This document shows positions 22,550 to 50,946 of a stretch of 64,000 bases of DNA, piece after piece (the stretch's first letter is position 1; each line of letters opens with the position of its first letter). A program made the translations under genes and the position numbers. The notes beneath the pieces were generated by a model. It made no database searches and had not been told where the DNA came from. It was given only the letters and a program-made list of their open reading frames with translations. Location of the stretch: positions 3,036-67,035 of the forward strand of contig CAZGFR010000004.1 in assembly GCA_964524485.1 (NCBI GenBank). The letters run 5' to 3'. This stretch comes from an uncultured Anaerolineaceae bacterium (lineage in GTDB: Bacteria > Chloroflexota > Anaerolineae > Anaerolineales > Villigracilaceae).

Positions 22550-22579
22550 CTGCCAGCTCACACGAGTTGGCAGTTTTTT
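22550..22579. terminator. Bidirectional rho-independent terminator (response regulator gene / convergent EamA gene)
   Basis: A 10-bp stem ctgccagctc / gagttggcag (one G-U pair) with loop acac is followed by T6. An A-rich run lies upstream. Confidence 0.65.
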
Positions 22580-29826: not shown

Positions 29827-32667
29827 CTAGGATTCGGGCCGCTCCGAAACGGATTGCGGCAGGACTTCGATGCGGTTGACGCCCAGGGCGTTCTTCAACT
29901 CCTGCATCGCCAGACGGATCATTTCGTTCGGGTCATTGGTCGAGCGGATGGTCGAGGTAATCTCAGATACCTTGCGTTCACGTTCGGCGCGTCGCAGGGA
30001 GTCCTGAAGCAGGCGGGCATTTTCGAGCGCCAGCGCCAGGCGGTCGGACGCGGTCTGCACCAGCGCCACCTCCTCCTTGGCCCACTGACGGTCCTTCTGC
30101 AGCGACATCACGTTCAGCACGCCGAGCAGTTCGCCGCGCAATTTAACGGGCATGACGATGGTCGGCTGGTGCGCGTCCCCGCCGTCCGTCACAACCACTT
30201 CGCCGCGTTCCAGCGCCTGCTGCATGCTCTCGCTTTGGACGGGCTTGTTGAGCAGCCTGCCGCCGCTGATCGACTGATAATAGCCGACGCTGGCGCTCTG
30301 CTGGGCGAAGCCCTTCCACTCCTGCCGCAGATACTGGCTGTACATGCTCTGCACTTCTTCGAGGGCCTGCTGGGTGCGTTCGAACAGGCGCGCGTTCTCG
30401 ATGGCGATGGCCACCTGGTCGGCCAGGGTGCTCAACACGTTGGCGTCGTTGTCGGTGAACGCCCCGTGCTTTTCGCTTTGCACGTCCAGCACGCCGATCA
30501 CGTCGCCGCGCACAATCAGCGGCAGGGCCATTTCGGAGTGGGTGTTAGGCAGGTCTGGGTTGTTGAAGAAAGCCGAGTCCGCGCCCACGTCGAGGGCGAT
30601 GCGCGGCTTGCCCGTGTTGGCCACATACCCCACGATGCCCGTCTGGCCCACCTGCAAGCGGTGACCGCGCGCCAGCATGCGCTGTCCGCCTTCGCTGTTG
30701 GCGGCCTGCAGCACGGCATAGGTGCGGGTCGGGTCGAGCAGGAAGATGCCTGTGTGATAGAAGCCGAATTTCTCGCTCACGGTACGGGCGATGAGCGGGA
30801 GCAGCACGTCGATACGCTGTTCAGCGGAGATGGCGCGTGAGACTTCGCTGATGGTCTCCAGGTTCCTGGCGCGCTCTTCACTTTGCAGGCGCGCGATCTC
30901 CAGGTCGTAGGTTCGCTCGGCCACGCTCCGTTCCAGTCCTCTCAGCGTATCGGAAAGCTGGCTCACGGTTTGATCCATCACACTGGCAAGCGTGCCGAGC
31001 TCGTCGGAGCGCTGGATGGCGTTCCGCACCGTGAGGTCGCCTGCCTGGATGCGCTCAGCGGTTGCCGTCAGGGACTGGACCGGGGCGACCAGCATCCTTG
31101 CGGATAGATTGGCCAGAAAACCTGCGCCAACGAAAAGGATCACAAGCAACGCCGCGCCCGCGCCCAATTGGCCGAACAAAGGCTGGAGGAAAGTCTCGCC
31201 GGGTTCCACGGCAATCGCCGTCCACGGTTTGAGCTGCGTGCGCGTCAGGCTGGCCTGGTCGTCACCGGGGGAGGTGTCGTTCGTTTCGAGTTCCACAGAG
31301 AAGAAATTCGAATCAGGATTTGCCAGGCCCGCTTCCATGTCGGGCAGGTTCAGCAGGAAATTCTCCTGTGGGCCAGGCGGGAGCCTCTGGGCATCCTGGA
31401 GGTCGGCGATCTGTGTCGCGCTGAACGGGGTGGATGTCTTGTAAAGCTTGTTCTCGTTCTTCTCGTCTGCGAGGATGGTGTGGTTTTCGTCCATCAGGAG
31501 AATGTAGGCGGTGGTATCGGCCGTATTGCCCTTCACAATTAGATTCTGCAGGACGGCCGCATCATATTCGACCACCAGCACCCCCAGCAGGGTGCCGTCC
31601 TCGTCCGAGATGGGGGCGCTGAAATACAGTTCCGCCGCACCCGTCTGCGGGTCGAACAGCACGTCCGAGGCGTAGGCCTGTCGATTCGAGATGACGGACC
31701 GATAGAAGGGGGCATTCGACTCATCGGTGGAGACGTGCGCCTGTTCCTCACTGCTGTCGAAGAGACTCTTGCCCTGGGCGTCGAGGACCAGATAGGTCTT
31801 GATCTCCCTTTGTGTCGAGCCCAGCGCCAGCAGCGTCCCCTGGAGTTCTTCGGCGGTTTCCTCTCCCTTGAGGAAGCCGATCACGCTGGGCAGGGTGGCA
31901 TTGGCCTGGATGGTGTTTAGATTATCCTGGAGGAAGGTGTCTATCTGGTGGGATGCCTGTTGCGCCTTATCCTGCAAACTCTGTCTGGATTTCTGGGTAA
32001 GGATATCCTGCGTGCTCAATAAAGCGGGGACGCCGATCATCAACACGGGCACGATCAACGTGATGAGGTAGGTTGTGTTGAGCTGGGTGCGCAACGACTT
32101 GAACTCGATCTGGGTGGTCAGGTGGATGCCGAAGAACAGCACCACCGCGCCGATGACGATGATGACACCCTGTTGGATCAAAGAGGCGATCGGAAGCCGC
32201 TCGGTGAGCTGCAGTCCATATTCGAAGATGAGGGTGGCGACGCTGAACATCCCGCCGATCACCAGGGCGAGTTGCACGCCGCGCGGCGGCAGCGCCTGCA
32301 GGGCAAAGATGGCCGTGAAGACTATCGCACCCAGAGCGAAAGTGATGCCCATCCCTGAAACGAAGAGCGTAGCAACGGTAAAGGTTAAGTTGACGATGCC
32401 GATGAATATCCAGGCCGTCAGGGAGGTATTCTTCGTCCGCCAGAGCAGGATCGTGCCTATCAGGATGGCCAGGCCCAGGATGGCATTGTCGATGAACAAC
32501 CCGTAATGCTGCCAGGCGCCGCCGCTCTGCCGTAACAGGCTGAGGTAGAACAGCTCGACCAGGATCACGGCGATCACGCCCGCCACACCGAAAGTCAGCA
32601 GGGTGCGATATTGGACGATTTGCTTGCTGGCTTGTCGTCGTTCTTGAGTGGGTTCAGAAGGTTGCAT
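29827..32667 (-). CDS. Receptor paralog R8: ~7 TM + dCache-like extracytoplasmic domain + TM + HAMP + GAF + GAF-like + C-terminal GAF-head stub; no output domain
   Basis: HAMP reads AERIQAGDLTVRNAIQRSDELGTLASVM. The signalling helix reads LERSVAERTYDLE. The GAF core reads KFGFYHTGIFLLD..GHRLQVGQTGIVGYVA..PDLPNTHSEMALPL..LADQVAIAIENARLF. A second module ends in RLALALENARLL. The terminal stub reads ERERKVSEITSTIRSTNDPNEMIRLAMQELKNALGVNRIEVL. Confidence 0.8.
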   Translation of the reverse strand: MQPSEPTQERRQASKQIVQYRTLLTFGVAGVIAVILVELFYLSLLRQSGGAWQHYGLFIDNAILGLAILIGTILLWRTKNTSLTAWIFIGIVNLTFTVATLFVSGMGITFALGAIVFTAIFALQALPPRGVQLALVIGGMFSVATLIFEYGLQLTERLPIASLIQQGVIIVIGAVVLFFGIHLTTQIEFKSLRTQLNTTYLITLIVPVLMIGVPALLSTQDILTQKSRQSLQDKAQQASHQIDTFLQDNLNTIQANATLPSVIGFLKGEETAEELQGTLLALGSTQREIKTYLVLDAQGKSLFDSSEEQAHVSTDESNAPFYRSVISNRQAYASDVLFDPQTGAAELYFSAPISDEDGTLLGVLVVEYDAAVLQNLIVKGNTADTTAYILLMDENHTILADEKNENKLYKTSTPFSATQIADLQDAQRLPPGPQENFLLNLPDMEAGLANPDSNFFSVELETNDTSPGDDQASLTRTQLKPWTAIAVEPGETFLQPLFGQLGAGAALLVILFVGAGFLANLSARMLVAPVQSLTATAERIQAGDLTVRNAIQRSDELGTLASVMDQTVSQLSDTLRGLERSVAERTYDLEIARLQSEERARNLETISEVSRAISAEQRIDVLLPLIARTVSEKFGFYHTGIFLLDPTRTYAVLQAANSEGGQRMLARGHRLQVGQTGIVGYVANTGKPRIALDVGADSAFFNNPDLPNTHSEMALPLIVRGDVIGVLDVQSEKHGAFTDNDANVLSTLADQVAIAIENARLFERTQQALEEVQSMYSQYLRQEWKGFAQQSASVGYYQSISGGRLLNKPVQSESMQQALERGEVVVTDGGDAHQPTIVMPVKLRGELLGVLNVMSLQKDRQWAKEEVALVQTASDRLALALENARLLQDSLRRAERERKVSEITSTIRSTNDPNEMIRLAMQELKNALGVNRIEVLPQSVSERPES

Positions 32668-32690
32668 AGATTTCTCTCACACTAAAGGCA

Positions 32691-35564
32691 TCACTTGCGG
32701 ACAGGTTGAGGCTTGACACCGTCGACCGTCGCCGACGGGGAAGGCTGTACCTGGACCAACACTTCGGTGTCGCCGCCCAGCGCCTGGCTCAACTCCTGCG
32801 CGGTGATCTGCAGGATCGACTCGAGGCGGATCGAAGAACCGATCTTGCCCGAAAGGTCGGCCGAGAGGCGTTCCAGTTCGGCGCGGCGGGTCGACTCTTC
32901 GAACAGGCGGGCGTTCTCCAGCGCGAGCGCCATTCGGTCGCTGACGGCCTGCACCAGGCTGATCTCGTCCACATTCCATTCGTGACCTTGTTGGCTCGGC
33001 TGGACGTTGATGACACCGATCACCTGGCCGCGGAGTTTGACCGGCATGGACAGGGACGCGGTCTGGCCGTCGTGCGCGGGGTTGAGGACCACCTCACCCC
33101 GTTCCAACGCGGCTCTCGCCTCGGCTGAATATTCCTCGGACTTCAGCCTGGCCCCGCCGCTCAGGGTTTGCTGGTATCCCAGGCCCTGGCTGCGGCGGGC
33201 AAAGCCCGTCCACTCCTGGCTGATGTACTGACGGTACACCGACTGCACCTCGGCCAGGGCGGCTTCCGTCTGGCTGAACAGGCGGGCGTTGTCGATGGCG
33301 ATGGCCACCTGGTCTGCCAGCACGGTGAGGGTGCTCAGGTTTTCGACCGTGAACACGCCGGAGTCGGTGCTTTGCATATCCAGCACGCCGATGGTCTGTC
33401 CGCGTGCGTTGAGGGGCAGCGCAATCTCGGAACGGGTATTGGGCAGATCGGGATTGTTGAAGAAAACGGCGTCAGCACCCACGTCGAGGGCGATGCGCGG
33501 TTGACCCGTCTGGGCCACGTAGCCCACGATGCCGGTCTGTCCCACTGCCAGGCTGTGACCGTGCGCCAGCATCCGCTTACCGCCTTCACTGCTGGCTGCC
33601 TGGAGGATGGCGAACTGTCGGTTGGAGTCGAGCAGGAAGATGCCCGTGTGATAGTAGCCGAATTTTTCGGTGATGAGGTTCGTGATGAGCGGCAGCAGCG
33701 ATTCGAGCCGCTGCTCGCCCGAGATGATGCGCGCCACGTCGCTAATGACCTCGAGGTCATGCGCGCGCGCCTCGCTTTGACGGCGGGCCACATCGAGGTC
33801 GTTAGTGCGTTCGGCCACGCGGGTTTCGAGGCTTTGCAGGGTCAGTTTCACCTGGTCGGACATGCGGTTGAACGTGGCTGCCAGTTCGCCGATCTCATCG
33901 TCCGCGCTGACGACAGCTTGGGCGGTCAGGTCGCCGGCGGCAAGTTTTTCAGCGGTGCTCTTCAAGGACAGCACCGGCTGCGAAATGATCCGCGCTGCAT
34001 ACAGGGACGAGAGTACGGCCAGCAGGATCAGCGCGATCGAGCCGAGCACGATGGCGCGGTTCTGGATGCGGACCGGGGCGTATAGCACGGATTCAGGCTG
34101 GCTGGCGATGGCCACCCACTTGACCGATTTCATCCGCGCGCCGGTCGTCAGAGCGCTGACCCCGGGCTTGGGCAGGTCGGCAGTGAAGTAGGGCGTTTGT
34201 TCGAGAGTCTGGATGCCCGCTACGACCGCGTCCGAACTGGCGATGGTTTCGTCGGCGGGACCGGGCGGAAGCAGTCCCTGCAATTGCAGGTTGGCCATGT
34301 CGATCGGCCCGTAGTTGCTGAAGGATTTGTACAACTCGTTGCGCGGACCGGTATAGGCCACGCGCACATAGGTACGGGCGTCCACCAGGGCCACGAGTTG
34401 TTGCTGTTCCTCATGGCCCGCCAACAGGGAGCGCATCATGTTCTGGAAGACGGCTGCGTTATATTCCGCGCGCAGGATGCCGATCACATCGCCGGAGAGG
34501 TTGCGGACCGGCGTGCTGAAATGGATATTGGCCTTGTTGCCGCTCTCGAAGACCAGGGTGGAGACGTACGGCAGGCCTGAGTTGAAGGGGACCTTGAAAT
34601 AGTCGAACCCGCTCTCGTCACGGCCGATCTGGTTCTCTGCCGTATCGAGGATATCCCGTCCGCTGACGTCGAGCAGGGCATACGAGTAGATGAACAGCAG
34701 GTCCTTGCGGACGAAGGTGTTCAGCGTGCGCAGGGCGTTGGCCTCCTCCGGGCTGCCCGCGCGCTGGAAGGTGGGCAGGGTCATGTACGCGATGATGGTG
34801 GGCTGTTGGGCTTCCGTGCGCAGGCTGTCCAATTGGGCGATGATGTACGCATCGGCCTTGTCGGCGGCGTTGGCGGCCAGGTCCGAGAGGTTCAACTTGG
34901 CCTGTGACTCCTGGGCCTGACGGCCCGCCAGGCTGCCAGCCGTGCCGAAGAGGAGCAGCGGGACCAGCGCTACGAGGGTGAAGGCGATCAGGATCTTTGC
35001 CTGCAGATTGAAGGAACTGAAATTCCTGAGGAGGAGGACGGTGAACACGATGGCCAGGACCGCTGAGATCGGGGTGCTGATCGTCGTGTTGGTTTGGATG
35101 CCAAACCCGACCGGCAGGAACAGGTCCGCGAGGATGGCCAGGGTGCCCAGGACGGCGGAGAAGGCAGCCGCCCGGACCACGTAGTTGGTCGGAAGCGTGG
35201 CGGTCGCGATGGTGGTCGTCATGACGATAAGCGCCAGGACCGGCGCAACCACCTGCCCGGGCAGCAGGTAGGGCATGAGCAGAATGGACATCACCAACAC
35301 AGTGATTAGGATGCCCATGCCGCCGCCCACCTGCCCGCGGTAGCTCAGGAGCAGGCTGACCAGGCCTGTCAGTGCCAGGAAACCGGCCAGGAAGACGCCG
35401 GCATAGATATCGCTCCCCAGGGTCTGCACGTTGAGCAAGAGGACTGCCGTGACGACGGTCAGGATCGCTGCTGTCAGACCGCTGATCCAGAGCGCGTTTC
35501 GGCGCCGCCTGTCTGTGAGGGCGTCGGAAGTGGGGGAGGGTGGTTGCGTTCGAGCGGGCATCAT
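32691..35564 (-). CDS. Receptor paralog R7: ~8 TM + dCache-like domain + TM + HAMP + GAF + GAF-like + GAF-head stub; no output domain
   Basis: It has the same architecture as R8. HAMP reads AEKLAAGDLTAQAVVSADDEIGELAATF, followed by LETRVAERTNDLD. The GAF core reads KFGYYHTGIFLLD..LADQVAIAIDNARLF. The stub reads RAELERLSADLSGKIGSSIRLESILQITAQELSQALGGDTEVLVQV. Confidence 0.8.
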   Translation of the reverse strand: MMPARTQPPSPTSDALTDRRRRNALWISGLTAAILTVVTAVLLLNVQTLGSDIYAGVFLAGFLALTGLVSLLLSYRGQVGGGMGILITVLVMSILLMPYLLPGQVVAPVLALIVMTTTIATATLPTNYVVRAAAFSAVLGTLAILADLFLPVGFGIQTNTTISTPISAVLAIVFTVLLLRNFSSFNLQAKILIAFTLVALVPLLLFGTAGSLAGRQAQESQAKLNLSDLAANAADKADAYIIAQLDSLRTEAQQPTIIAYMTLPTFQRAGSPEEANALRTLNTFVRKDLLFIYSYALLDVSGRDILDTAENQIGRDESGFDYFKVPFNSGLPYVSTLVFESGNKANIHFSTPVRNLSGDVIGILRAEYNAAVFQNMMRSLLAGHEEQQQLVALVDARTYVRVAYTGPRNELYKSFSNYGPIDMANLQLQGLLPPGPADETIASSDAVVAGIQTLEQTPYFTADLPKPGVSALTTGARMKSVKWVAIASQPESVLYAPVRIQNRAIVLGSIALILLAVLSSLYAARIISQPVLSLKSTAEKLAAGDLTAQAVVSADDEIGELAATFNRMSDQVKLTLQSLETRVAERTNDLDVARRQSEARAHDLEVISDVARIISGEQRLESLLPLITNLITEKFGYYHTGIFLLDSNRQFAILQAASSEGGKRMLAHGHSLAVGQTGIVGYVAQTGQPRIALDVGADAVFFNNPDLPNTRSEIALPLNARGQTIGVLDMQSTDSGVFTVENLSTLTVLADQVAIAIDNARLFSQTEAALAEVQSVYRQYISQEWTGFARRSQGLGYQQTLSGGARLKSEEYSAEARAALERGEVVLNPAHDGQTASLSMPVKLRGQVIGVINVQPSQQGHEWNVDEISLVQAVSDRMALALENARLFEESTRRAELERLSADLSGKIGSSIRLESILQITAQELSQALGGDTEVLVQVQPSPSATVDGVKPQPVRK

Positions 35565-35587
35565 GGTAGTTGTCTCATTTCGCGGCC

Positions 35588-36562
35588 CTATCTCAGGTAG
35601 GACTCGTCGAGCATGGCGTTGAAGTCGGGATTTGAGGTCAGGGTTCCAACCCGCACAAGGAAGTCAGTGTTGGTGGAGGCGATTTGCTGAATGGGGGAGG
35701 CGCCTCCGTCTGCACCGACCCGGTACAGGTCGAGATTGTTTTCGCGGTTGAACAGGGTGACGGGCGAGTTGAATTCGATGGTGCCCTGTGGAACCTTCAA
35801 GTATTCGGCGATGATCTGGCGGGCCGCCTGGGGATTCTGGCGGCGGAATTCCACGGCTTCGAACCAGGCGCGCAGGAAGGCGCGGATCTGGTCGGGCTGC
35901 GATTCAACCACCTCGCGGCGGAATACGATCACATCCGGGAAGAGCATCGAGGTCTCATTGGACTTGAACAGGATGCGGTTCCCTTTGGACAGGGCCTCAC
36001 CGGTGTAGGGTTCCCACGAAAAGCCTGCGTCGATGTCGACGCCCAACGCGGCGGGAACCTCGGCCGGGTCGTAATCGAACAGGGAGACGTCCGACAGTTT
36101 CAGACCGCCTGTTTCGAGCATCTGGACGACGAACAGTTCGTACGTCGAACCGATCGGCACGCCGATGCGCTTTCCTTTCAAATCCGGGACGCGCGTGATA
36201 TCGGGGCTGGCAATGACGGTGTTGGGACCGCCGTCGTCATAGACGGCTGGGATGACGATATCCGCGTGGTGGGAGGCGTTCAGCGCGTCGCCGATGTTCA
36301 TCAGCGCCCCGTCGAGCTGTCCGGCAGACAGGTCTGCCAGGCTTTTGTAATACACATCGTAATAGACGGGTTCCACGTCCACGCCGTACTTTTCGAACAG
36401 GCCGCGTTCCTTGGCGATGATCAGGGTGTAGTCACCCCACCAGGAAGTGAACTCGACCCGCAGGGGGGCGCGGGTGGCGGGCGCAGGTTCAAACGCGCCG
36501 CATGAGGTCAGCAGGCTGAGCACCACGGCGATTTGCAGGAATTTCCACAAGCGCGGGAACAT
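35588..36562 (-). CDS. Orphan lipoprotein substrate-binding protein, NMT1/THI5 (SsuA/TauA/NrtA-like) family
   Basis: It has a lipobox (LSLLTSCGA) and SBP-type sequence (LRVEFTSWWGDYTLIIAKERGLFEKYGVDVE..LKGKRIGVPIGSTYELF). No permease or ATPase genes are adjacent. Its ATG overlaps the R6 stop by 1 nt. Confidence 0.75.
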   Translation of the reverse strand: MFPRLWKFLQIAVVLSLLTSCGAFEPAPATRAPLRVEFTSWWGDYTLIIAKERGLFEKYGVDVEPVYYDVYYKSLADLSAGQLDGALMNIGDALNASHHADIVIPAVYDDGGPNTVIASPDITRVPDLKGKRIGVPIGSTYELFVVQMLETGGLKLSDVSLFDYDPAEVPAALGVDIDAGFSWEPYTGEALSKGNRILFKSNETSMLFPDVIVFRREVVESQPDQIRAFLRAWFEAVEFRRQNPQAARQIIAEYLKVPQGTIEFNSPVTLFNRENNLDLYRVGADGGASPIQQIASTNTDFLVRVGTLTSNPDFNAMLDESYLR

Positions 36563-42514: not shown

Positions 42515-42515
42515 G

Positions 42516-44204
42516 TCAGTTCTGGCCCTTTAGCGCGCCGGGATGTTTCCCGTTCGGGTTCTCGTTCACCTCAGGTGCGGGTGGCGTGTTGAATCGCACT
42601 TCGGCCTCCGTCAGCCCGAAGGCATTGCGGAGTTCGTCGGCAGCGGTCTGGAGCACGGTCTCCATGTCCAGGGTTTGGCGGATGCGGTTGGACACGTTGG
42701 CGATCATTTGGTCGCGGGCGGCGTTCTTTTGGGTCTCCTCCAGCAGGCGGGAGGTGTCGAGCGCAAGCGCCACCTGGGCGGCGATCTCTGCCGCCAGTTC
42801 CTGCTCTCGTTTGTTCCAGGGAGGTGAGGTCTGTTTGCGGCGCAGGTTGATCACGCCGATTGCCTGTCCGCGCAGCTCGATGGGCACGCGCAGGGTCCAG
42901 CCGCTATCGTCGGGCAGGGACTCGCTGGCGCGTACATCGGTCAGCGGGCGGACGCCCAGGTGAGTGTACTGATATGCGGGGGCGCGGCGCTTGAGGTAGG
43001 TCACCCAGGCGTCGCGGGTCTGCAGGGCGGTGAGGGCCTGGAACTGGCCAATGATGGCCTCGCTCTCGGTGAACAGGCGGGTGTTCTCGATGGCGATGGC
43101 CAGTTGGTCGGCCACGGTACGCATGATCTCCACATCGTCTTCGCTGAAGGCGTTGACCTTTTCGGACTGGATGTCGAGCGCGCCGATCACATGTCCGCGT
43201 ACGATCAGGGGCAGGGCCATCTCGGAGTGGGTCAGCGGCAGGTGCGGATTGTCGAAGAAGACGGCGTCCGCGCCTGTGTCGAGGGCCACGCGCGGACGGG
43301 CGCGCGCGGTGACATAGCCGACGATGCCCGTCTGCCCGACGGTCAGGCGGTGGCCGAGGCTCAGCATCTGCCTGCCGCCTTCGGAAGAGGCGGCCTGGAG
43401 CACGGCAAATTGTTCCCTGTCGTCCAGCAGGAAGATACCGACGTGGTAGAAGCCGAACTGTTCGGCAATGTTGGATACCACGCCGTTCAACAGGGCTTGC
43501 AGGTCACGGACTTCGGCGATCCTGCGGGCCACCGACGAGGCGGCTTCGAGCTGGGTGGTCTTTTCGGCGATCTCGGTGGTGCGTTCTTCCACGCGCTTTT
43601 CGAGCAGGGAGCGTTCCTTCTCGAGCGCGTTCAGCGAGGAGCGGGCGTCGGCTTGGGCGTTCTCGAACTCGCGCTGGAGCAGAGCCAGGCCGATGATGGC
43701 GATGGCGTCCAGCATTAGCAAGGCCACAGCGCTGGTGAGCCAGATCTCCCAGGAGCCGATGATCAATTCCTTGTTGATGGGTTCGATCTGCCCGACGATC
43801 AGCATCCAGCCTGCCGCGGCAGTCGCTCCCAGTGAGATGATCGTGGCGACCACCGCCGCGCGGGTCGAGAGCAGCATGGCGGTGAACACGACCGTGGCGA
43901 ACAGGAACAGGCGTGAATCGCCCCAAATGCCCGTGTCGATCAACCCGACCGCACCCAGGGCGAAGGGAAGCAGGATGAAGATGCCCGCCCGCAGCACATA
44001 CGGAATGGGTGCAAACGTGATGACGATCAGCAGAGCGTAGGCCGCAAGGTTCACCAGCGGCGTGAAGGGATCGTTCCACGAACTGAGGGAGGGGATCAAT
44101 GCAAGGAAGGCAAAGACCAACGCGACGCGCAGGATGATGCGCAGGAAGTTCTCGCGCCAGGCCTGCAGGGTGTGGGAGGTATCTCGAATGGCATTCGTGG
44201 TCAT
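42516..44204 (-). CDS. Receptor paralog R3: multi-TM + coiled coil + GAF + GAF-like + GAF-head stub; no HAMP, no output domain
   Basis: About 6 TM segments are followed by LEKRVEERTTEIAE. The GAF core reads QFGFYHVGIFLLD..VADQLAIAIENTRLF. The stub reads AARDQMIANVSNRIRQTLDMETVLQTAADELRNAFGLTEAEVRF. Confidence 0.8.
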   Translation of the reverse strand: MTTNAIRDTSHTLQAWRENFLRIILRVALVFAFLALIPSLSSWNDPFTPLVNLAAYALLIVITFAPIPYVLRAGIFILLPFALGAVGLIDTGIWGDSRLFLFATVVFTAMLLSTRAAVVATIISLGATAAAGWMLIVGQIEPINKELIIGSWEIWLTSAVALLMLDAIAIIGLALLQREFENAQADARSSLNALEKERSLLEKRVEERTTEIAEKTTQLEAASSVARRIAEVRDLQALLNGVVSNIAEQFGFYHVGIFLLDDREQFAVLQAASSEGGRQMLSLGHRLTVGQTGIVGYVTARARPRVALDTGADAVFFDNPHLPLTHSEMALPLIVRGHVIGALDIQSEKVNAFSEDDVEIMRTVADQLAIAIENTRLFTESEAIIGQFQALTALQTRDAWVTYLKRRAPAYQYTHLGVRPLTDVRASESLPDDSGWTLRVPIELRGQAIGVINLRRKQTSPPWNKREQELAAEIAAQVALALDTSRLLEETQKNAARDQMIANVSNRIRQTLDMETVLQTAADELRNAFGLTEAEVRFNTPPAPEVNENPNGKHPGALKGQN

Positions 44205-44207
44205 GGG

Positions 44208-46124
44208 TTAGTCTGCCTTCAACTCGATGGTGACTTCGTCGGTGTCCAAGGCGCGGCCCATTTCCCTGGCGGCGGTCTGCATGATGCCGTCGATGGTGCT
44301 GGAGGACCAGATCTTGCCGGTGATCTCCGCCACCATGCGCTCGCGGCGGGCGGTGGACTGGCTGTCTTCCACCAGGCGTGCATTTTCTAACGCGAGCGCG
44401 GCTTGCGAAGCAATGGCTTCGATCATGCTTCTTTCTTCGGGAGTCCAGTCGTTGTCGCCCGTCAGGTTGATCTGACCGATGATCTGGTCACGCAACGACA
44501 ACGGGATATCGATCTGGCGCACTGTCTCGTGCGGCTCCACCTCGCCGTTTTCAAAGGAGAGGTTTGGTCGTTCGTCGGTGACGCGCTTCCAGGTATCAAG
44601 CAGGTACTGTTGCTGGATGGCGTGCATATCCTGCAGGTTCTGTCGAGCCTCCTGGAACAGGCGCGCGTTCTCGAGCGCGATGGCGATCTGGTTGGCCATG
44701 GTCTGAAGGGTCTCGATGTCCTCCGGGTCGAAGGCGCTATCCTTCGTCGATTGGGCGTCCAGCGCCCCGAGGACGCGGTCGCCCACGATAAGCGGGAGCG
44801 CGATCTCGGAGCGGGTGTACGGGAGCAGCGGATTGTCGAAGCGGACGTGGTTCCCGACGGTGTCCATCACCACCTGTGGCTGGCGCTCGCGGATGGCGGT
44901 CCCCACCATGTTCTTGCCATCCACTTCCAGGCGGTGCTTGTTCTCGCGCAACACGCGGCCTGCATCGCCGGTGGCGTTGCGGAGTTCGGCCCAGCGCTCG
45001 GAGGGGTCCAGCAGGAAGAGGGCCACGTAGTAGTAACCGAATTCCTCGGCGATCAAGTTCACGAGGCGTTCAGTCAGTTCGTTTGCGTCGAGGATGGCGC
45101 TGATGACGCGGCTGACCTGCACCGTGGCGCGCAATTGGGCGGTGCGTTCCTTGACCTGCGACTCGAGCGTTTCCTGAAGGGTGTTCAGACGCCCGGCCAT
45201 GTGGTTGAAGTAAATGGAGACTTCGCCGATTTCATCGGAGGCGATCACGTCCACGCGTTTGGTCAGGTCGCCTTGTTCCAATGCCTGCATGGCCTGGATC
45301 AGGTTGCGCATCGGGGTCAACAGGGTGCGCAGGATCAGGGCTGAGAGGGTCAATCCCAACACAAGGTTGATGGCGCTCGCCACGATTGACTGGACCTGGA
45401 AACTTCTCACCAAGTCTGCGCCGCCTGCTCCGCCGCTGGTTGCCAGGAGGACGTGATGATATCCGATCGGGCCCATCACCAGGATGCCGATGGCGATCAG
45501 CGTCAGCGCCGAACCGATGATCTTGTTTGTGAGACCGAACCCAACCACGTCCTTCAACTGGGCTTCGATGGTCTTGGGGATCAATACCACGCGGACCGGG
45601 CGCAGGAAATAATCGAGGATGTGTGAGGCGAGCGAAGCCCCGCCAAAGGAGGCCACCAGCCCGCCCATGATCCCGTACTGGAACTGCTCGGGCGTGACAC
45701 CGTGGTAGAAGTACAGGAACCCCAACAGCGGGATGGTCTCCCCGATCAACGCGACCAGGAAGGTGGTCAGGATGAAGCGCAGGGGCAGCGAGTTAACCTC
45801 CCGCCAGGCGGCGCTTTCGGTCTTGTCTCCGCTCGAAAGGGGTTTTCCCTGGCTCCACTGGGTCAATCGCAGGAAGGCGTTCTGGCTGGAGTAATACGTC
45901 CAGGCTGCCATGACGACATTTCCAATGGGGACCAGCACCCAGGTGATGCGGAACACCATCGAGATCTGGTCGGCGGTGAATTGGGCGTTGTTTTGCACGA
46001 AGTAGGTGGCCACAGCCGTGCTGACAAAGGCTATAAGCTGAACCACGAGCACCGTGACCGGCAGGTACCAGCCGCCCAGCCGCTTCAAAGCGTTTTGCAG
46101 GAAGGGTGCAAGGTCGAACTTCAT
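44208..46124 (-). CDS. Receptor paralog R2: ~6 TM + HAMP + GAF + GAF-like + GAF-head stub; no output domain
   Basis: HAMP reads LEQGDLTKRVDVIASDEIGEVSIYFNHM. The GAF core reads EFGYYYVALFLLD..MANQIAIALENARLF. The stub reads ARRERMVAEITGKIWSSSTIDGIMQTAAREMGRALDTDEVTIEL. Its start forms an ATGA overlap with R1. Confidence 0.8.
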   Translation of the reverse strand: MKFDLAPFLQNALKRLGGWYLPVTVLVVQLIAFVSTAVATYFVQNNAQFTADQISMVFRITWVLVPIGNVVMAAWTYYSSQNAFLRLTQWSQGKPLSSGDKTESAAWREVNSLPLRFILTTFLVALIGETIPLLGFLYFYHGVTPEQFQYGIMGGLVASFGGASLASHILDYFLRPVRVVLIPKTIEAQLKDVVGFGLTNKIIGSALTLIAIGILVMGPIGYHHVLLATSGGAGGADLVRSFQVQSIVASAINLVLGLTLSALILRTLLTPMRNLIQAMQALEQGDLTKRVDVIASDEIGEVSIYFNHMAGRLNTLQETLESQVKERTAQLRATVQVSRVISAILDANELTERLVNLIAEEFGYYYVALFLLDPSERWAELRNATGDAGRVLRENKHRLEVDGKNMVGTAIRERQPQVVMDTVGNHVRFDNPLLPYTRSEIALPLIVGDRVLGALDAQSTKDSAFDPEDIETLQTMANQIAIALENARLFQEARQNLQDMHAIQQQYLLDTWKRVTDERPNLSFENGEVEPHETVRQIDIPLSLRDQIIGQINLTGDNDWTPEERSMIEAIASQAALALENARLVEDSQSTARRERMVAEITGKIWSSSTIDGIMQTAAREMGRALDTDEVTIELKAD

Positions 46125-49100
46125 TTCGATCCCTCCCCATTGCCGTTGTGTGGGATGGCGGGGTTGATGGTGATGCGCGCATGCCGCGCTCCCACAACCT
46201 TCATCAGTTCGTTGCCCGTGGTCTCCAGGATGGTCTGGATGTCGGTGGAGCGGCGGATCTTGCTGGTCACCTCGAAGAGTTGGCGCTCGCGTTCGGCCTG
46301 GGTGCGGATCTGCTCCAGCAGGCGGGCGTTCGCGATGACGGCCGCCAGGCTGCCGCCCAGCGTGCCGAGCATTTCCTCGTCACCTTCGCTGTATGCGGCC
46401 TGCTGTTCGCTTTCCACGTTCAGCACGCCCAGCATTTCATTGCGGTAAATCAGAGGAACGGCCAGTTCGGAGCGCGTGTTGGAACTGACCTGGATGTAGC
46501 GCGGCTCGTCGGCGATGTCGTCGATGCGCAGGGGACGGCGGTGCGCCGCCACCCAGCCTGTCACACCGCTGCCCACCGGGATCCGAATCTGGGCTACTTC
46601 TTCCGAGTAGCCGACCGAGGCCTTGACCTGCAATTCCTTGCGGTCGCGGTCGAGCAGGAGGATCATCACACGGTCGCCGCCGAGCGTCACCTGGAGTCCG
46701 TTCACCGCGCTGGTAAGGGCTTCTTCCAGGGTGGTCCCGGAGGCCGCCGTGGTGGTGATGTGATGCAGCAGGCGGTGCTGGGAGAGGTGTTCCTGCGTTT
46801 CGGAGAACAGCTCGCTGTTTGCCACCGCCACCGCCATCTGGTCGGCGAGGATTTGCAGGGTGCGCAGGTTGTCGTCGTTGAAGGCGAAGATCTGCGTGCT
46901 TTGCACGTCCAGCACGCCCAGGATGCGGTCACTGACCTTGAGCGGGATGGCAGCCTCGCTCCTCGTCTCGGGCAGGAGCGGATTGGCATAATAAGTAGGA
47001 TCCTTGGCGGCGTCGTTGATGACCAGCATCTCGCCGCGCCCGGAGACGTATCCCACGATGGATTTGGAGCCGACGCCGAGTTTGTGCCCGGCGCGTTTGA
47101 GTTGCTGCCCTGCCTCACCGGTCGCCTCGCGGATGACGGCGAATTCCCCGGGCAGGTCGAGCAGGAACACGGACGCGTGATAGAAGTTGAAGCGTTCGCG
47201 GATCAGGTTGACGGCCTTGGCCAGCAGTTCGTCCACATTGAAGGAGCGGCTGACCTCGCGGGCGATTTCCGCCGCGGTCTCGAGCTGCACAGCGCGCTCG
47301 CGGCTGTCATCCAGCAGGCGCACGTTATAGATCACGCCCGCCACCTGCGACGAGAGGGCCGAGATGAATCTCAGGTTATTCTCGGTGAAAGCGCCTTCGT
47401 TCTCGGTGTCCTGCACGATCAAGGCGCCGATGGCCTCCCCGTTGAGGATCATGGGTGCGCCCATCCACGATCTGGGTGGACGGCCGATGATCTTGGCGCC
47501 CATGGCCGCCGCGCGTTTCTCGGTGTTTTCCACCAGCAGGAGTGGCTTCTTGGAGTGGATCAGAATCGAGGTCAGGCCCTCGCCCAGGGGGAACGGGTCG
47601 ATCTGGGTGATGCGTCCCTCGTCGTAGGCATACGGGATGCGGATCGTGTTGGACTTCGAGTCGTACAGCGCCACGATGAAACTGTGGTCGCCGATGATGT
47701 TCTGGACCTGTTTATGCAGGGTGGTGAACAGATCGCTGGCGTCGGTCGCCGTGGACACGATCTGGCCGATGGAGGTCAGCGCATTCAATTCGCGCATGCG
47801 CTCGTCGGTGGTGTCGGCGGCCTGGATCTTTTCAAGTGTGATCGAGGTCAGGTCGGCCAGGCTGATGTAGGGCTGCAAGGCCGAGCGGTTCAACTTGACG
47901 GCACGCGAACCGATCATCAGCAGGGCGTCCAGACTTTCACCGCGCATGATCGGCAGGTAGGCCACGGATTGGAAGCCCAGCGCGGTCGGAATGGCGGTCA
48001 GCGCGTTGGTGGTGGGGCTGGCCGTCAGGTCGTAGATGGATTCACCTGCCAGTTGGCGGACGGTCTCTGCGGGAGTCAATTTGATGTCGCGCGGCAGGGT
48101 GTTGACGGAGGGATTGCGCGTGTCGTTGATGAAATCCAGTTCGAGCTGATTGTTGCGCGGACGGAAGATACCCGTTGCGTAGGGTGCATCCCTGAGCGCC
48201 GCGCTGACGATGCTCAACGCCTCTGTCTCGCTCTGCGCCTGGGCGATCTGGCGGCTGGAGCGGTACAGGCGCTCGAGTTCCTGGAAGTTGATCTGCGTCG
48301 ATTCGACCAGGCTGGCGTTCTGGATGGCGGCCGCGATCTGGTTGGCCAGGGTTTGCAGCACCACGATGGCTTCCGAGTCGAAGGCGTTCGGCTCGGTGCT
48401 TTGTACGTCGAGCACACCGTAGACCAGGTCGCCCGAGGAGATCGGGACAGCGGCTTCGGCGCGCGTGTTGACCAGCAGGGTGTTCTTGAAGTGGAGCGGA
48501 TCCTCGACCGTGTCGGATGCGACGCGCGGCTGGTTATTGGCCGACACCCAGCCGACCAGGGAGGTCGAACCGACTTCGAGGCTGTGTCCACGCTCGAGCA
48601 GTTCGCGCGCCACCGGGCTGTAGGCCGCGCGGATGACCGCGTATTTGCCTGCGCGATCGAGCATGAATATGGACGAGTGATAATACCCGAAGCGTTCGAC
48701 GATTAGGCGGGTGGTGGTGTTCATCAATTCGGGCAGGTCAGTGGCGGCGGTGATGCCCTTGGCTACTTCGCCCGCCGTGCGGATCTGGCGTGTGCGCTCC
48801 GCGACCTTTTGTTCAAGGGAACGCGTCAGGCTGCTCAACTCGTCGGCCATCTGGTTGAACGAGTGGGCCAGCTGGCCGATCTCGTCCTGCCGTTTGACCT
48901 CGGCCCGCTGGTCGAGGTCACCTTCGGCGAAGCGGCGCGTGACCCCCGTCAGTAAAATGATGGGATTGATCATGCGGTTGATGCCGCCGCTGATGGCGAT
49001 GGCCGCCAGGATCATTGCGCCCAGGAAGATGCCGATGGTGAACGGCGCCAGGCTGTTGACCCGGTCAAGGACCACATCTCTCTGAATTTCAAGCACAACC

Positions 49101-50014
49101 CCGGCATTCATGCCGGGCAGCCATTTTGCCTGTGCAATGACGGTGTGACCGTCATTGGTTTCGAGCGTGAGCGAGGCGGGCGGCGGGGATTCCTCGGTCT
49201 GGCCCATCATCCCCGCGAAGGCCGTACCGAGCGAGGCTTTTTGTTCCTGGGATGGTTCGATACGCAGCAAGTCGCCCGTATACGGGTCGGCTCCGATCAG
49301 TACTCCGTCTGTGGTGACGAAATACGCCGAAGCCGAAGGGCTGAGTCGTACCAACGGGTCGAGGATGCGTGACAGGCTTTGCGGCTCGGTCACGCCCACC
49401 AGGGCTCCGAGTACCGAACCTGACTCGGTGCGGTAGGGCTGGATGGTGAGCGCCACCAACTGATTCGGATAGTATGGACGGAAATCGTAGACCGTGATCG
49501 TGATGGGCTTCCCCGCGCGAAGGCTGCCATACGCTGCGGTCTCTGCAATGGAAGTGGTCTCCCATTCCGGGCGGGTGGCCATCTGGATCGTGCCGTTCGG
49601 GCGCACCAGGAAGACCTGGTCGAAGGTGGGGTTGGCTTGATCTGCGTTCATTACGCGGATCTGATCCAGCACCTGCCTGCGCAGCGAGTTGAAGGTGGTG
49701 CTCTTGCGGTTGGAATGCAGCGCCTGCTGGAGCAGAGAGGCCAGGTCTTCGCGGTTGGTCAGCCGTTCCAGGCGGATGTTCTTGGTCTTGAGCAACAGGA
49801 CGACGTCGTCCGTCTGCCCGTTCAGCAGGGTCTGCATCTGTGTCACAGCCTGCTGTTGCAGCAAATCCCTGGAACGCAAATAAGCGCTGCCAGCCATGAT
49901 GATCAGCGGGATCAACGTCAAGCCAACCAGCGCCTGGATCAGCGTGCGTCTCAGACTGCCTGTAAATTCACCTGTGTTCATGTTCTGCGCGGAGCGACCG
50001 TCGAAGGATGTCAT
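46121..50014 (-). CDS. Receptor paralog R1 (1297 aa): TM + dCache-like domain + TM + HAMP + five GAF domains + GAF-head stub; no output domain
   Basis: HAMP reads AEGDLDQRAEVKRQDEIGQLAHSFNQM. Two GAFs carry the family core (RFGYYHSSIFMLD.., RFNFYHASVFLLD..LADQMAVAVANSELF), and three more divergent GAFs are present. The stub reads AERERQLFEVTSKIRRSTDIQTILETTGNELMKVVGARHARITI. Confidence 0.8.
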   Translation of the reverse strand: MTSFDGRSAQNMNTGEFTGSLRRTLIQALVGLTLIPLIIMAGSAYLRSRDLLQQQAVTQMQTLLNGQTDDVVLLLKTKNIRLERLTNREDLASLLQQALHSNRKSTTFNSLRRQVLDQIRVMNADQANPTFDQVFLVRPNGTIQMATRPEWETTSIAETAAYGSLRAGKPITITVYDFRPYYPNQLVALTIQPYRTESGSVLGALVGVTEPQSLSRILDPLVRLSPSASAYFVTTDGVLIGADPYTGDLLRIEPSQEQKASLGTAFAGMMGQTEESPPPASLTLETNDGHTVIAQAKWLPGMNAGVVLEIQRDVVLDRVNSLAPFTIGIFLGAMILAAIAISGGINRMINPIILLTGVTRRFAEGDLDQRAEVKRQDEIGQLAHSFNQMADELSSLTRSLEQKVAERTRQIRTAGEVAKGITAATDLPELMNTTTRLIVERFGYYHSSIFMLDRAGKYAVIRAAYSPVARELLERGHSLEVGSTSLVGWVSANNQPRVASDTVEDPLHFKNTLLVNTRAEAAVPISSGDLVYGVLDVQSTEPNAFDSEAIVVLQTLANQIAAAIQNASLVESTQINFQELERLYRSSRQIAQAQSETEALSIVSAALRDAPYATGIFRPRNNQLELDFINDTRNPSVNTLPRDIKLTPAETVRQLAGESIYDLTASPTTNALTAIPTALGFQSVAYLPIMRGESLDALLMIGSRAVKLNRSALQPYISLADLTSITLEKIQAADTTDERMRELNALTSIGQIVSTATDASDLFTTLHKQVQNIIGDHSFIVALYDSKSNTIRIPYAYDEGRITQIDPFPLGEGLTSILIHSKKPLLLVENTEKRAAAMGAKIIGRPPRSWMGAPMILNGEAIGALIVQDTENEGAFTENNLRFISALSSQVAGVIYNVRLLDDSRERAVQLETAAEIAREVSRSFNVDELLAKAVNLIRERFNFYHASVFLLDLPGEFAVIREATGEAGQQLKRAGHKLGVGSKSIVGYVSGRGEMLVINDAAKDPTYYANPLLPETRSEAAIPLKVSDRILGVLDVQSTQIFAFNDDNLRTLQILADQMAVAVANSELFSETQEHLSQHRLLHHITTTAASGTTLEEALTSAVNGLQVTLGGDRVMILLLDRDRKELQVKASVGYSEEVAQIRIPVGSGVTGWVAAHRRPLRIDDIADEPRYIQVSSNTRSELAVPLIYRNEMLGVLNVESEQQAAYSEGDEEMLGTLGGSLAAVIANARLLEQIRTQAERERQLFEVTSKIRRSTDIQTILETTGNELMKVVGARHARITINPAIPHNGNGEGSK

Positions 50015-50017: not shown

Positions 50018-50464
50018 CTATGTGAATTCCCAAACTTGTTCCCCACTCAGGATGCGGCGGATCTGGTCAGGAAAACGGTCGGGGTCGAGCGGTTTGCCCA
50101 GAAAGCCATCGAAGCCCGAAGCGCGGGCTTTGTTCATCTGCTCCTGACTGGCTTCGGCCGTCACGGCAATGATTGGGATGGTCTTCAGCCGCTCGGAGGC
50201 GCGGATCTTCTTCAACGCCCCGTAGCCGTCCTCGTAGGGCAGGCGGATGTCCATCAGGATCAGGTCCAGGCGCGGCAGGGTGTCGGCATATTCCACCACC
50301 TCGTACCCCGAGGTCTTCCACTCGCAGTGGATGCCAAGGTAACCCAACATGCGGGCGATCAGCACGAAGTTGGACACGTTGTCCTCTACCACCAGCACGG
50401 TCGTATCTTTGGGGATGCCTGGTTTGCGGGCGGGTTGAACTTCCATCGAGGTGGGGTTAACCAT
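50018..50464 (-). CDS. Stand-alone CheY-like receiver protein (with ~20-aa N-terminal extension)
   Basis: The protein reads VLVVEDNVSN..LILMDIRLPYEDG..IPIIAVTAEA..GFLGKP. No output domain is present. Confidence 0.85.
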   Translation of the reverse strand: MVNPTSMEVQPARKPGIPKDTTVLVVEDNVSNFVLIARMLGYLGIHCEWKTSGYEVVEYADTLPRLDLILMDIRLPYEDGYGALKKIRASERLKTIPIIAVTAEASQEQMNKARASGFDGFLGKPLDPDRFPDQIRRILSGEQVWEFT

Positions 50465-50942: not shown

Positions 50943-50946
50943 TGAG

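Follow-up and report, generated by a model that had tools for sequence, protein, structure and literature searches.

How do eight paralogous membrane receptors, none of which carries an output domain, transmit a signal? The question is raised by a gene cluster in the window (the whole stretch of 64,000 nucleotides that was analysed), which an earlier note had described as eight tandem receptors of 562-1297 aa with variable sensors and an invariant GAF signalling module. Signal transmission was left unexplained in that note because it stopped at positions 29827-50014. The receptors themselves indeed lack output domains, but the adjoining genes, encoding a ParA-type ATPase, a hybrid histidine kinase and a threonine synthase-like enzyme fused to a receiver (ThrC-REC), together with genes for single-domain receivers, offer an output route. 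The receptors are present in one conserved operon with the kinase, ParA and three receiver proteins, and are therefore probably interchangeable inputs of a shared kinase. In the reading that we favour, with a probability of roughly 0.6, R1-R8 belong to a multi-receptor two-component system as input subunits without a kinase of their own, all serving one shared, ParA-positioned kinase.

Organization of the operon

The 14 genes of the operon occupy ~27 kb of the minus strand (23695-50840), with intergenic gaps of -38 to +23 nt, in the order recA, recB, R1-R6, SsuA-like lipoprotein, R7, R8, Soj-like ParA, hybrid histidine kinase and ThrC-receiver fusion (Table 1). A promoter and terminator scan of the operon revealed no internal signals exceeding the shuffled expectation. 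All eight receptor genes were found as minus-strand ORFs of the lengths previously given; they are paralogues, but the array is not uninterrupted, as the lipoprotein gene intervenes.

Table 1. Genes and selected protein regions of the receptor-kinase operon (positions in the window).
Feature	Position	Strand	Evidence and remarks
recA, single-domain receiver, 127 aa, first gene of the operon	50457..50840	-	ORF; NCBIfam
recB, single-domain receiver, 148 aa	50018..50464	-	8-nt overlap with recA; stops 3 nt ahead of R1
R1, TM-dCache_1-TM-HAMP-4xGAF-stub, 1297 aa	46121..50014	-	Pfam, hydropathy, alignment
R2, multi-TM-HAMP-GAF1-GAF2-stub, 638 aa	44208..46124	-	Pfam, hydropathy, alignment
R3, MASE11-coiled coil-GAF1-GAF2-stub, 562 aa	42516..44204	-	Pfam, alignment
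R4, 8-9 TM-HAMP-GAF1-GAF2-stub, 674 aa	40490..42514	-	Pfam, hydropathy, alignment
R5, TM-dCache_3-TM-HAMP-GAF1-GAF2-stub, 729 aa	38304..40493	-	Pfam
R6, MASE11-like-coiled coil-GAF1-GAF2-stub, 581 aa	36562..38307	-	Pfam, alignment
SsuA/NMT1-like substrate-binding lipoprotein, 324 aa, inside the receptor array	35588..36562	-	Pfam NMT1; TIGR01728
R7, 6TM-dCache_1-TM-HAMP-GAF1-GAF2-stub, 957 aa	32691..35564	-	Pfam, hydropathy, alignment
R8, 7TM-dCache_1-TM-HAMP-GAF1-GAF2-stub, 946 aa, last receptor of the array	29827..32667	-	Pfam, hydropathy, alignment, AlphaFold
R8 stub, aa 876-946	29830..30042	-	HMM, alignment
ParA/Soj-like ATPase, 265 aa	29023..29820	-	Pfam AAA_31/CbiA; starts 6 nt downstream of R8
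Soluble hybrid histidine kinase, 1226 aa	25380..29060	-	Pfam; 38-nt overlap with parA
Kinase N-terminal Lys-rich peptide MPKKKQKIDKRIDTLFDGIQPEE	28986..29060	-	Motif kept in orthologues
Kinase N-terminal half-GAF, aa 74-154	28599..28841	-	HMM match to the C-terminal half of receptor GAF2
Threonine-synthase-like PLP enzyme with C-terminal receiver, 556 aa	23695..25365	-	Pfam PALP + Response_reg

Variable sensors and absence of an output domain

The dCache-like ectodomains previously assigned to R1, R7 and R8 all match Pfam dCache_1, the scores of R8 (70.5 bits) and R1 (49.2 bits) being over the Pfam cut-off of 45 bits and that of R7 (39.9 bits) under it. The Cache-like domain of R5 corresponds to dCache_3 (E = 7.5e-30). 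R3 contains a MASE11 domain (58.8 bits versus a cut-off of 27.3), and the MASE11 match of R6 is under the cut-off. As had been proposed, Pfam detects HAMP in exactly six receptors and in neither R3 nor R6; the 7-8 extra transmembrane segments formerly counted in R7 and R8 are reduced to 6-7 by hydropathy. Pfam GAF matches follow the variable sensors in every receptor, and a multiple alignment (29-54% pairwise identity) recovered the common cassette with its reported motifs and its terminal stub of ~45 aa. The two-GAF description has to be corrected for R1, which contains four full GAF domains.

In agreement with the earlier note, Pfam and NCBIfam analyses of R1-R8 detected no kinase, cyclase, phosphodiesterase, MCP or HTH domain, nor any other enzymatic or DNA-binding domain; HisKA/DHp and HATPase_c, sought with the same libraries, were likewise absent. 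The STAS domain, a hallmark of RsbR-type proteins, was not detected by Pfam in any of the eight, and similarity to the NCBIfam CtpM model is weak and limited to the sensor domain and HAMP. MCPsignal (PF00015) gave no match in R1-R8 at E <= 0.01, and Pfam, applied to about 30 genes of the window, found no match to CheW, CheA P1-P5, CheR or CheB. R1-R8 are not members of the MCP family, the MCPsignal domain being missing and the scanned window genes including no che gene. The comparison with the design principle of chemoreceptors, made before the rest of the operon was considered, holds as an analogy, strengthened by the operon kinase, two CheY-like receivers and ParA, but not as membership of the MCP family.

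The lipoprotein encoded within the array matches Pfam NMT1 and, under the cut-off, the TIGR01728 SsuA_fam model (E = 2.5e-44). A substrate-binding protein gene is present inside the receptor array in about two dozen loci among the genome loci listed, and the SsuA-like lipoprotein is a candidate ligand-presenting partner of R7.

The GAF cassette and its terminal stub

The AlphaFold model of R8 residues 576-946 (pLDDT 92.2) is a tandem-GAF rod, with two GAF folds joined by a long connecting helix, the second GAF being reduced to five strands. At its end, a helix of 45 residues is followed by one of 16 residues and by an unpaired tail of low confidence; the stub thus modelled consists of the prolonged last GAF helix, the second helix and the tail. 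The top Foldseek matches of this model are the tandem GAFs of PDE5A, PDE2A and CyaB2, and GAF-PHY (E values from 1.7e-10 to about 1e-9). By sequence search against solved structures, GAF1 gave only weak matches (E >= 3e-7), to the Lcd1-type PDE GAF, PtsP, NlhH and DevS. The motif NKFDE (NK-x(5-24)-F-x3-DE) is typical of cNMP-binding GAF domains; a regular-expression search found it in none of the eight receptors nor in the kinase. R1-R8 contain no cysteine at all, and hence neither a bilin-attachment nor an fRMsr-type catalytic Cys.

The stub corresponds to an S-helix followed by alpha1 (and beta1) of a GAF domain whose remainder is missing: its HMM also matches the alpha1 region of GAF1, and in alignments it falls on alpha1-beta1 of the complete GAF domains located after the half-GAF of orthologous kinases (see below). 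Conservation is highest in GAF1 (2.7-3.2 bits, the maximum of the cassette), reaches 2.2-2.4 bits in the stub, where A, E-R and E-L positions are near-invariant, and is 1.2 bits in the N-terminal half of GAF2. Two proteins (P0409 and P0417) have a PAS domain in place of GAF2 and still carry the stub. The profile of the GAF2-stub module retrieved 12,944 sequence clusters (50%-identity representatives) at E <= 1e-30. The 150 best representatives of the module include 90 with a kinase core, of which none ends with the stub, and 30 without a kinase, which are stub-ended; kinase core and terminal stub being mutually exclusive in this set, the stub sits in the place of the kinase. As a proxy for co-evolution, we compared the stubs of paralogues from the same genome with cross-genome pairs at equal GAF1 identity; the former are no more alike, and there is therefore no signal of lineage-specific co-evolution.

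A soluble hybrid kinase related to the receptors

The kinase, whose start was set at the ATG at 29060 by its conserved N-terminus, is composed of an N-terminal peptide, a disordered linker, a half-GAF, PAS, GAF, PAS, a GAF1-like GAF, HisKA, HATPase and two REC domains (Pfam, domain map), with HisKA and HATPase at aa 740-965 of the trimmed protein. Hydropathy revealed no transmembrane segment in this protein, and no Hpt domain was found. The last GAF carries the motifs of receptor GAF1 (RFGFYHASIF...NPLLPGTRAEAAIPL). The half-GAF, composed of three strands and a long helix (AlphaFold pLDDT 77-89), matches positions 98-139 of the receptor profile (HMM, E = 1e-10) and precedes all other structured elements in the orthologous kinases examined. 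MAFFT superposed the N-termini of the kinases onto the C-termini of the receptors because the two regions are homologous. The motif of the N-terminal peptide, which is Lys/Arg-rich and predicted to be disordered, is present in 45 of 53 orthologues.

Two variant loci combine these modules differently. In L160, which has no ParA, the receptor array is directly followed by a 10xGAF-HisKA-HATPase-REC-REC kinase; ParA is therefore not obligatory. The L161 operon encodes the receptor architecture fused to a kinase core in a single polypeptide (dCache_1-HAMP-4xGAF-HisKA-HATPase-REC), and the protein encoded right after ParA is a stub-terminated poly-GAF without a kinase, so that the partner of ParA is not always the kinase itself.

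ParA, receivers and ThrC-REC

The ParA protein has an intact deviant Walker A motif (KGGVAKT, conforming to KGGxxK[ST]), and the solved structures closest to it belong to a ParA family protein (8ray), to Thermus Soj and to other Soj/ParA proteins (E from ~1e-42 to 8e-42). The cargo of ParA/MinD ATPases is usually encoded beside the ATPase, and the positively charged disordered N-termini of their partners are the part that contacts it (PMC10241942). By analogy, the Lys-rich N-terminus of the kinase is a candidate ParA-interacting peptide.

Receiver domains were detected with Pfam and NCBIfam in recA, recB and ThrC-REC. The NCBIfam matches of recA and recB are solely to receiver domains of hybrid kinases, and recB shares 83-92% identity with the best 80 of its 515 confirmed metagenome matches. 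ThrC-REC matches PRK08197 at 248 bits, under the cut-off, and solved ThrC structures at E = 1e-40; the GSFKDR motif of the PLP lysine is readable in its sequence, and the acidic pocket and phospho-acceptor Asp of its receiver appear to be present (IVDD...ILDLMMP). This protein is probably an enzymatic response regulator. Its very high conservation (76-99% identity in the best 120 clusters) means that it may represent the housekeeping threonine synthase, and its link to the receptor pathway could be regulatory in other ways than modelled here.

Conservation of the locus

We analysed 79 loci from metagenome-assembled genomes of Anaerolineales and other Chloroflexota; an R8-like query served to select them, so that the sample leans towards the 3' end of the operon, and their 10-kb flanks fall short of the operon start. 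ParA is encoded in 69 of these 79 loci, in all 69 immediately after a stub-bearing receptor. It is followed by the kinase in 65 of the 69, and ThrC-REC comes next in at least 50, the remaining loci being cut by contig ends. The operon start was surveyed through a metagenome scan seeded with recB: all 37 loci longer than 6 kb present the arrangement IspA-recA-recB-receptors, and in 32 metagenome loci the receptor series opens with an R1-type sensor. The number of receptors per operon varies from five to nine.

A model of interchangeable inputs

The architecture, the lack of an output domain, the conserved operon, the homology of the modules and the existence of fusion variants are observed; from these we infer how receptors and kinase are physically coupled, what ParA does, in which direction regulation runs and where phosphoryl groups go. 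Each receptor, a membrane protein and presumably a dimer, would use its variable sensor (dCache_1, dCache_3, MASE11 or a multi-TM bundle), possibly served in one case by the SsuA-like lipoprotein, to drive the HAMP/S-helix, the tandem-GAF rod and the helical stub. The receptors would thereby control the sole soluble hybrid histidine kinase, encoded two genes downstream of the array. In the most specific version, the receptor stub (alpha1, beta1) would dock on, or complete, the kinase half-GAF (strands and alpha5). The Soj-like ParA would bind the Lys-rich disordered N-terminus of the kinase; positioning or partitioning of the kinase-receptor assemblies would follow, a task that ParC and PpfA perform for chemoreceptor-CheA arrays. 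The two receivers of the kinase itself, recA and recB, and the receiver of ThrC-REC would be the acceptors of phosphoryl groups from the kinase, and the output would be at least partly metabolic.

A more daring extension, which we consider doubtful as a whole, is a GAF counterpart of the chemoreceptor array in which a split GAF-like mini-domain is assembled in trans. The receptor end would provide the first GAF helix and strand and the kinase start the complementary last strands and helix, nucleoid-bound ParA would spread the membrane-kinase assemblies along the filament, and the integrated signal would set a threonine-synthase-type activity via the receiver.

The receptors could also act as negative regulators or decoys, being truncated paralogues of the N-terminal region of the kinase and forming mixed oligomers with it that hold it in an inactive or phosphatase state until ligand binds, in the way that RetS keeps GacS inactive. 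Receptors and kinase do have GAF1-type and half-GAF modules in common, and a kinase core and a terminal stub never occur together in the same module array. This is our main model with the opposite sign, and the computed data do not separate the signs; it requires subunit exchange between receptor and kinase dimers, docking being simpler, and we judge it unlikely. No more probable, in our opinion, is signalling independent of the co-encoded kinase, through another partner of the stub, direct control of ParA, or a GAF1 pocket that takes up and releases a small intracellular ligand, the same ligand being sensed by the kinase GAF and the operon serving co-expression. A common ligand would fit the strong conservation of GAF1 and the recurrence of its motifs in the kinase, and the poly-GAF protein of L161 indicates that stub proteins can adjoin ParA themselves. 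Nevertheless, the receptors lack any ligand-making or ligand-destroying domain, the fusion variants join the same cassette directly to a HisKA core, and the gene order kept across 65 loci speaks for a functional unit.

That R1-R8 are fragments of larger sensor-kinase genes, produced by sequencing or assembly frameshifts, or decaying pseudogenes, is extremely improbable. Some database homologues are short and a nanopore-derived locus (L009) has split ORFs, but each gene of the window has its own ATG and its own N-terminal TM/sensor region, and adjacent genes are tightly joined (-4 to +23 nt) and use different reading frames. The stub is clearly constrained, almost all of its 445 matches end within about 30 aa of the protein C-terminus, and the independently assembled loci L001, L002 and L026 have genes of the same sizes. 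Frameshift-broken genes had been named in the earlier note as what would overturn its description; we reject this origin, as orthologous loci in other genomes keep the same gene boundaries and sizes.

If the shared-kinase reading is correct, this operon would represent a second, independent way to couple many sensors to one kinase, with GAF modules and a docking stub doing the work of the MCP hairpin and CheW. It would account for a very large class of proteins annotated merely as "GAF domain-containing protein", extend the known cargos of ParA-type ATPases to a histidine kinase and make a PLP enzyme of amino-acid biosynthesis a phosphorylation-controlled output. The hosts are Anaerolineales of sludge, sediment and groundwater, an abundant yet poorly studied order.

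Comparison with known systems

A literature search found no description of a GAF-based receptor array with a shared kinase. A close parallel is with MCP-CheW-CheA arrays positioned by ParC or PpfA, which similarly combine many paralogous receptors with variable sensors, an invariant cytoplasmic module and no enzymatic output; a separate soluble histidine kinase, CheY-like single-domain receivers and a ParA-type ATPase in the same operon are further common features. In ParC/PpfA-positioned systems the partner of the ATPase has a basic disordered N-terminus (PMC10241942), for which the kinase peptide is the candidate here. Unlike in chemoreceptor arrays, a tandem GAF with a GAF-cap stub takes the place of the MCPsignal hairpin as the invariant module, the kinase is a HisKA-type hybrid and not a CheA, and the only output domain of the operon is a PLP enzyme.

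PDE2A, PDE5A, CyaB2 and the GAF-PHY module of phytochromes resemble the cassette in their two GAF-type domains, long linking helix and preceding signalling helix. Those modules continue covalently into a catalytic or kinase domain, whereas the chains of R1-R8 end, and the receptors differ from them by the absence of NKFDE and of the bilin cysteine and by the reduced GAF2.

Sensing is delegated to proteins apart from the kinase in accessory-sensor (three-component) and multikinase systems such as RetS/LadS-GacS, LuxP-LuxQ and TorT-TorS. The operon shares with them separate sensing proteins, including a periplasmic binding protein that may feed one receptor; it differs by its five to nine kinase-less paralogues, by a C-terminal module common with the kinase N-terminus and by the presence of ParA alongside. 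The stressosome (RsbR paralogues-RsbS-RsbT) is a hub of proteins that differ in their N-terminal sensors, share a conserved C-terminal domain and together govern a kinase encoded by a gene of its own. Several paralogues, variable sensors, a conserved C-terminal part and a separately encoded kinase are found here too, but the receptors have no STAS domain and are membrane proteins, and the kinase is a histidine kinase rather than a serine kinase.

Variable receptors with a common cytoplasmic cassette

The earlier note described eight tandem membrane receptors (R1-R8) with variable sensors, a common GAF cassette and no output domain, and this observation is correct: ORF calling, Pfam/NCBIfam searches and a MAFFT alignment agree. 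The minus-strand ORFs of interval 29827-50014 encode proteins of 1297, 638, 562, 674, 729, 581, 957 and 946 aa (R1 to R8). The interval indeed holds the eight receptors but also a ninth gene that the note did not list, encoding a lipoprotein (Table). Pfam detected dCache_1 domains in R8 (70.5 bits) and R1 (49.2 bits), above the cut-off of 45 bits, and a match below it in R7 (39.9 bits), as well as dCache_3 in R5, MASE11 in R3 (with a weak match in R6), and HAMP in R1, R2, R4, R5, R7 and R8. GAF matches are present in all eight proteins, four in R1 and one full plus one partial in each of R2-R8. Hydropathy indicates two transmembrane segments each in R1 and R5, 5-9 in R2, R3, R4 and R6, and 6-7 N-terminal to the Cache domain in R7 and R8.

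The C-terminal 440 residues, aligned with MAFFT, share 29-54% pairwise identity and follow a single order: a signalling helix (S-helix; LE.RV.ERT) leads to GAF1, which a long linker connects to a short GAF2 with ALENARL at its end, and a terminal stub of ~45 aa with the consensus ER..aEi...I.s......ilqt...EL..alg closes the protein. Kinase, cyclase, phosphodiesterase, PP2C, MCP and DNA-binding domains are all absent from R1-R8 in Pfam and NCBIfam searches. Sequence searches found neither an NKFDE motif nor a cysteine in the GAF1 domains, which resemble GAFs of solved structure weakly. The receptor family exhibits extreme cysteine avoidance: R1-R8 contain no Cys in 6,384 residues (at the 0.53% frequency in 17 other proteins of the window, ~34 would be expected), and receptor ORFs of the related loci L001-L079 contain 118 in 285,039 residues, 322 of 401 receptors being Cys-free.

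A 14-gene operon

The earlier note took the receptors without their surroundings, overlooking the ParA, kinase and ThrC-REC genes downstream and the two receiver genes upstream (Table). Since the receivers abut R1 and a tRNA-Gly(CCC) gene with its own promoter- and terminator-like sites lies upstream of them, the unit is a 14-gene, 27-kb operon running from 50840 to 23695, in which successive genes of the receptor interval are spaced by -4 to +23 nt. On the minus strand, a perfect TTGACA-17-TATAAT match (51061-51033) lies ahead of the tRNA gene (50946-51018) and a GC-rich 10-bp hairpin with a T-run (50943-50920) behind it, all immediately upstream of the operon, beyond recA/recB.

Features of the operon, its neighbourhood and the related locus L161 (L161 positions refer to that locus)
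Feature	Position	Strand	Remarks
recA	50457-50840		single-domain receiver, upstream of R1
recB	50018-50464		single-domain receiver, upstream of R1
R1	46121-50014	-	first receptor
NMT1/SsuA-like lipoprotein	between R6 and R7		324 aa; Pfam, NCBIfam
R8	29827-32667	-	last receptor
ParA/MinD-type ATPase	29023-29820	-	265 aa; 6 nt downstream of R8; AAA_31 + CbiA match; Walker A KGGVAKT
Soluble hybrid histidine kinase	25380-29060	-	1226 aa; overlaps parA end by 38 nt
ThrC-REC	23695-25365	-	556 aa; threonine-synthase-like PLP enzyme + C-terminal receiver; 14 nt beyond kinase
Histidine kinase 3xGAF-HisKA-HATPase	17597-20230	+	877 aa; near operon, outside
Histidine kinase, short HisKA-HATPase	14060-15316	-	418 aa; near operon, outside
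L161 kinase-less protein	10001-15364		1787 aa; right after ParA; 9-10 GAFs; stub at end; N-terminus MADDELKRLLEGLFSDIP
L161 membrane kinase	15370-19659		dCache_1-HAMP-4xGAF-HisKA-HATPase-REC; then PALP-REC

Among solved structures, ParA is closest to a ParA family protein and Thermus Soj (E ~1e-42). The start of the kinase was set at ATG 29060 because the resulting N-terminus, MPKKKQKIDKRIDTLFDGIQPEE, is conserved in orthologues; the protein trimmed in this way contains one Cys in 1,226 residues. A basic N-peptide, a Pro/Ala/Lys-rich linker (~60 residues) and a half-GAF (aa 74-154) precede a first PAS domain, after which come a GAF, a second PAS, a GAF with GAF1 motifs (RFGFYHASIF...), HisKA, HATPase and two receivers.

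Conservation

A genome scan with the R8-type cassette gave at least 557 confirmed matches; those listed belong, with few exceptions, to MAGs of Anaerolineales and other Chloroflexota, and the nearest of them shares 93% identity. The ParA gene is present in 69 of the 79 fetched loci, in every case directly 3' of a stub-bearing receptor; the kinase follows in 65 of these 69, and ThrC-REC as well in at least 50, the loci that depart from this order being those ended by contig ends. In most 21-kb loci, the number of stub-bearing receptors is three to nine. The set of sensor modules changes from genome to genome; the array usually opens with an R1-type receptor and closes with an R7/R8-type one. 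ThrC-REC is conserved far above the receptors (76-99% identity in the best 120 clusters). Starting from recB, a scan of metagenomes yielded 515 confirmed matches, of which the top 80 are 83-92% identical, and all 37 metagenome loci longer than 6 kb have the order (IspA)-recA-recB-receptor-receptor.

The stub and the kinase half-GAF

The AlphaFold model of R8 residues 576-946 (pLDDT 92.2) comprises a 38-residue signalling helix, a six-strand GAF1, a 52-residue connecting helix and a reduced five-strand GAF2, and ends in a 45-residue helix, a 16-residue helix and a low-confidence unpaired tail. Its Foldseek neighbours are the tandem-GAF modules of PDE5A, PDE2A and CyaB2 and phytochrome GAF-PHY; the cassette thus belongs structurally to the tandem-GAF class, without the covalently attached effector that such modules normally regulate. 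The stub HMM also matches the helix ahead of GAF1, and in orthologous kinases the same pattern forms the alpha1-beta1 opening of the next full GAF. The stub is thus a signalling helix together with an N-terminal GAF cap, the body of that GAF being absent.

That the receptor genes are fragments of longer genes broken by frameshifts, which the earlier note named as a refuting condition, is ruled out: each starts at an ATG of its own and encodes a separate membrane or sensor region, gene sizes and order are identical in orthologous loci of independent assemblies (e.g. L001, L002 and L026), and almost all of the 445 full-length stub matches in 79 loci end within ~30 residues of a stop codon. Nor is the stub a decaying remnant, as shown by its conservation (2.2-2.4 bits per column in 408 receptors, versus 1.2 for the GAF2 N-half and 1.65 for the inter-GAF helix) and by its retention in two database proteins, P0409 and P0417 (HAMP-GAF1-PAS-stub), in which a PAS replaces GAF2. 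The latter architecture shows that the stub is independent of GAF2. The PAS of both proteins is a homologue of the kinase's first PAS.

The kinase half-GAF matches the profile of the receptor GAF2 C-half, DQLSLALENARLF included, and in an unpaired alignment receptor C-termini and kinase N-termini collapse together, the two halves being homologous. AlphaFold predicts kinase residues 1-70 to be disordered and the half-GAF to form three strands and a 40-residue helix running into the PAS (pLDDT 77-89). In the orthologous kinases examined, no structured element precedes the half-GAF, and zero to six full GAFs come after it.

Fused variants

An exhaustive GAF2 + stub profile search matched 108,039 representative proteins at E <= 1e-3, of which 12,944 also reach E <= 1e-30. 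Among the best 150 representatives, none of the 90 with a kinase core ends in the stub, and 30 lack a kinase and end in it; sampled stub-terminated members contain GAF only, with or without dCache, HAMP, MASE11 or PAS. In L161, a variant of the operon, dCache_1, HAMP, four GAFs, HisKA, HATPase and a receiver are combined in a single membrane protein adjoining ParA and ThrC-REC. In L160, a membrane-anchored 10xGAF-HisKA-HATPase-REC-REC kinase comes directly after a receptor array; ParA is absent from this locus and the basic N-peptide from its kinase. Both loci are Rosetta-stone evidence that ties the receptor cassette to a HisKA kinase.

The giant poly-GAF proteins P0241-P0390 reach 3,952 aa and contain 7-21 matched module stretches; in P0241, for example, 19 GAFs are joined to HisKA-HATPase. 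P0501, a 190-aa protein encoded on a metagenome contig of 903 nt, consists only of a kinase-type N-peptide, linker, half-GAF and receptor-type stub, and could be an adaptor or else a truncated gene call.

Proposed mechanism

The output-less receptors, the conserved operon with one kinase, ParA and three receivers, the homology between receptor C-terminus and kinase N-terminus, and the fused variants are established. In the general model, to which we give a probability of roughly 0.6, the receptors would modulate the shared kinase, ParA would position the assemblies, and phosphotransfer would proceed from the kinase to recA, recB and ThrC-REC. The most specific and least certain step concerns docking. 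In the GAF fold, the N-terminal helix and strand adjoin the last strands and the C-terminal helix, so the stub and the half-GAF could assemble a mini-domain in trans; we consider this split-GAF docking rather unlikely. A comparison of stub similarity within versus between genomes gave no co-evolution signal. ParA may bind the Lys-rich disordered N-terminus of the kinase and position receptor-kinase assemblies, because ParA/MinD partners have positively charged disordered N-termini and genes beside the ATPase, as in the case of ParC/PpfA and chemotaxis clusters (PMC10241942).

We rate the system as a multi-receptor two-component system in which kinase-less sensors act in trans. Like chemoreceptor arrays and stressosomes, it joins numerous sensor paralogues through an invariant module to a kinase encoded separately, but by their defining features it belongs to neither family: Pfam scans show no MCPsignal domain in R1-R8, no Che proteins among about 30 genes of the window, and no STAS domain. 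It matters as a widespread and directly testable system, of which a literature search found no description, either of the operon or of stub-terminated GAF receptors.

Other observations in the window

An 841-aa ORF (6010-8535, minus strand) with an FtsW/RodA/SpoVE domain and a penicillin-binding transpeptidase segment is apparently a SEDS-transpeptidase fusion. In a 1229-aa protein (59168-62857, minus strand), a PMT_2 glycosyltransferase membrane domain occurs together with NHL-repeat beta-propeller repeats. Finally, a 14-bp hairpin with an A-run on one side and a T-run on the other (22546-22577), between an EamA gene (minus strand) and a convergent plus-strand gene, looks like a bidirectional terminator.
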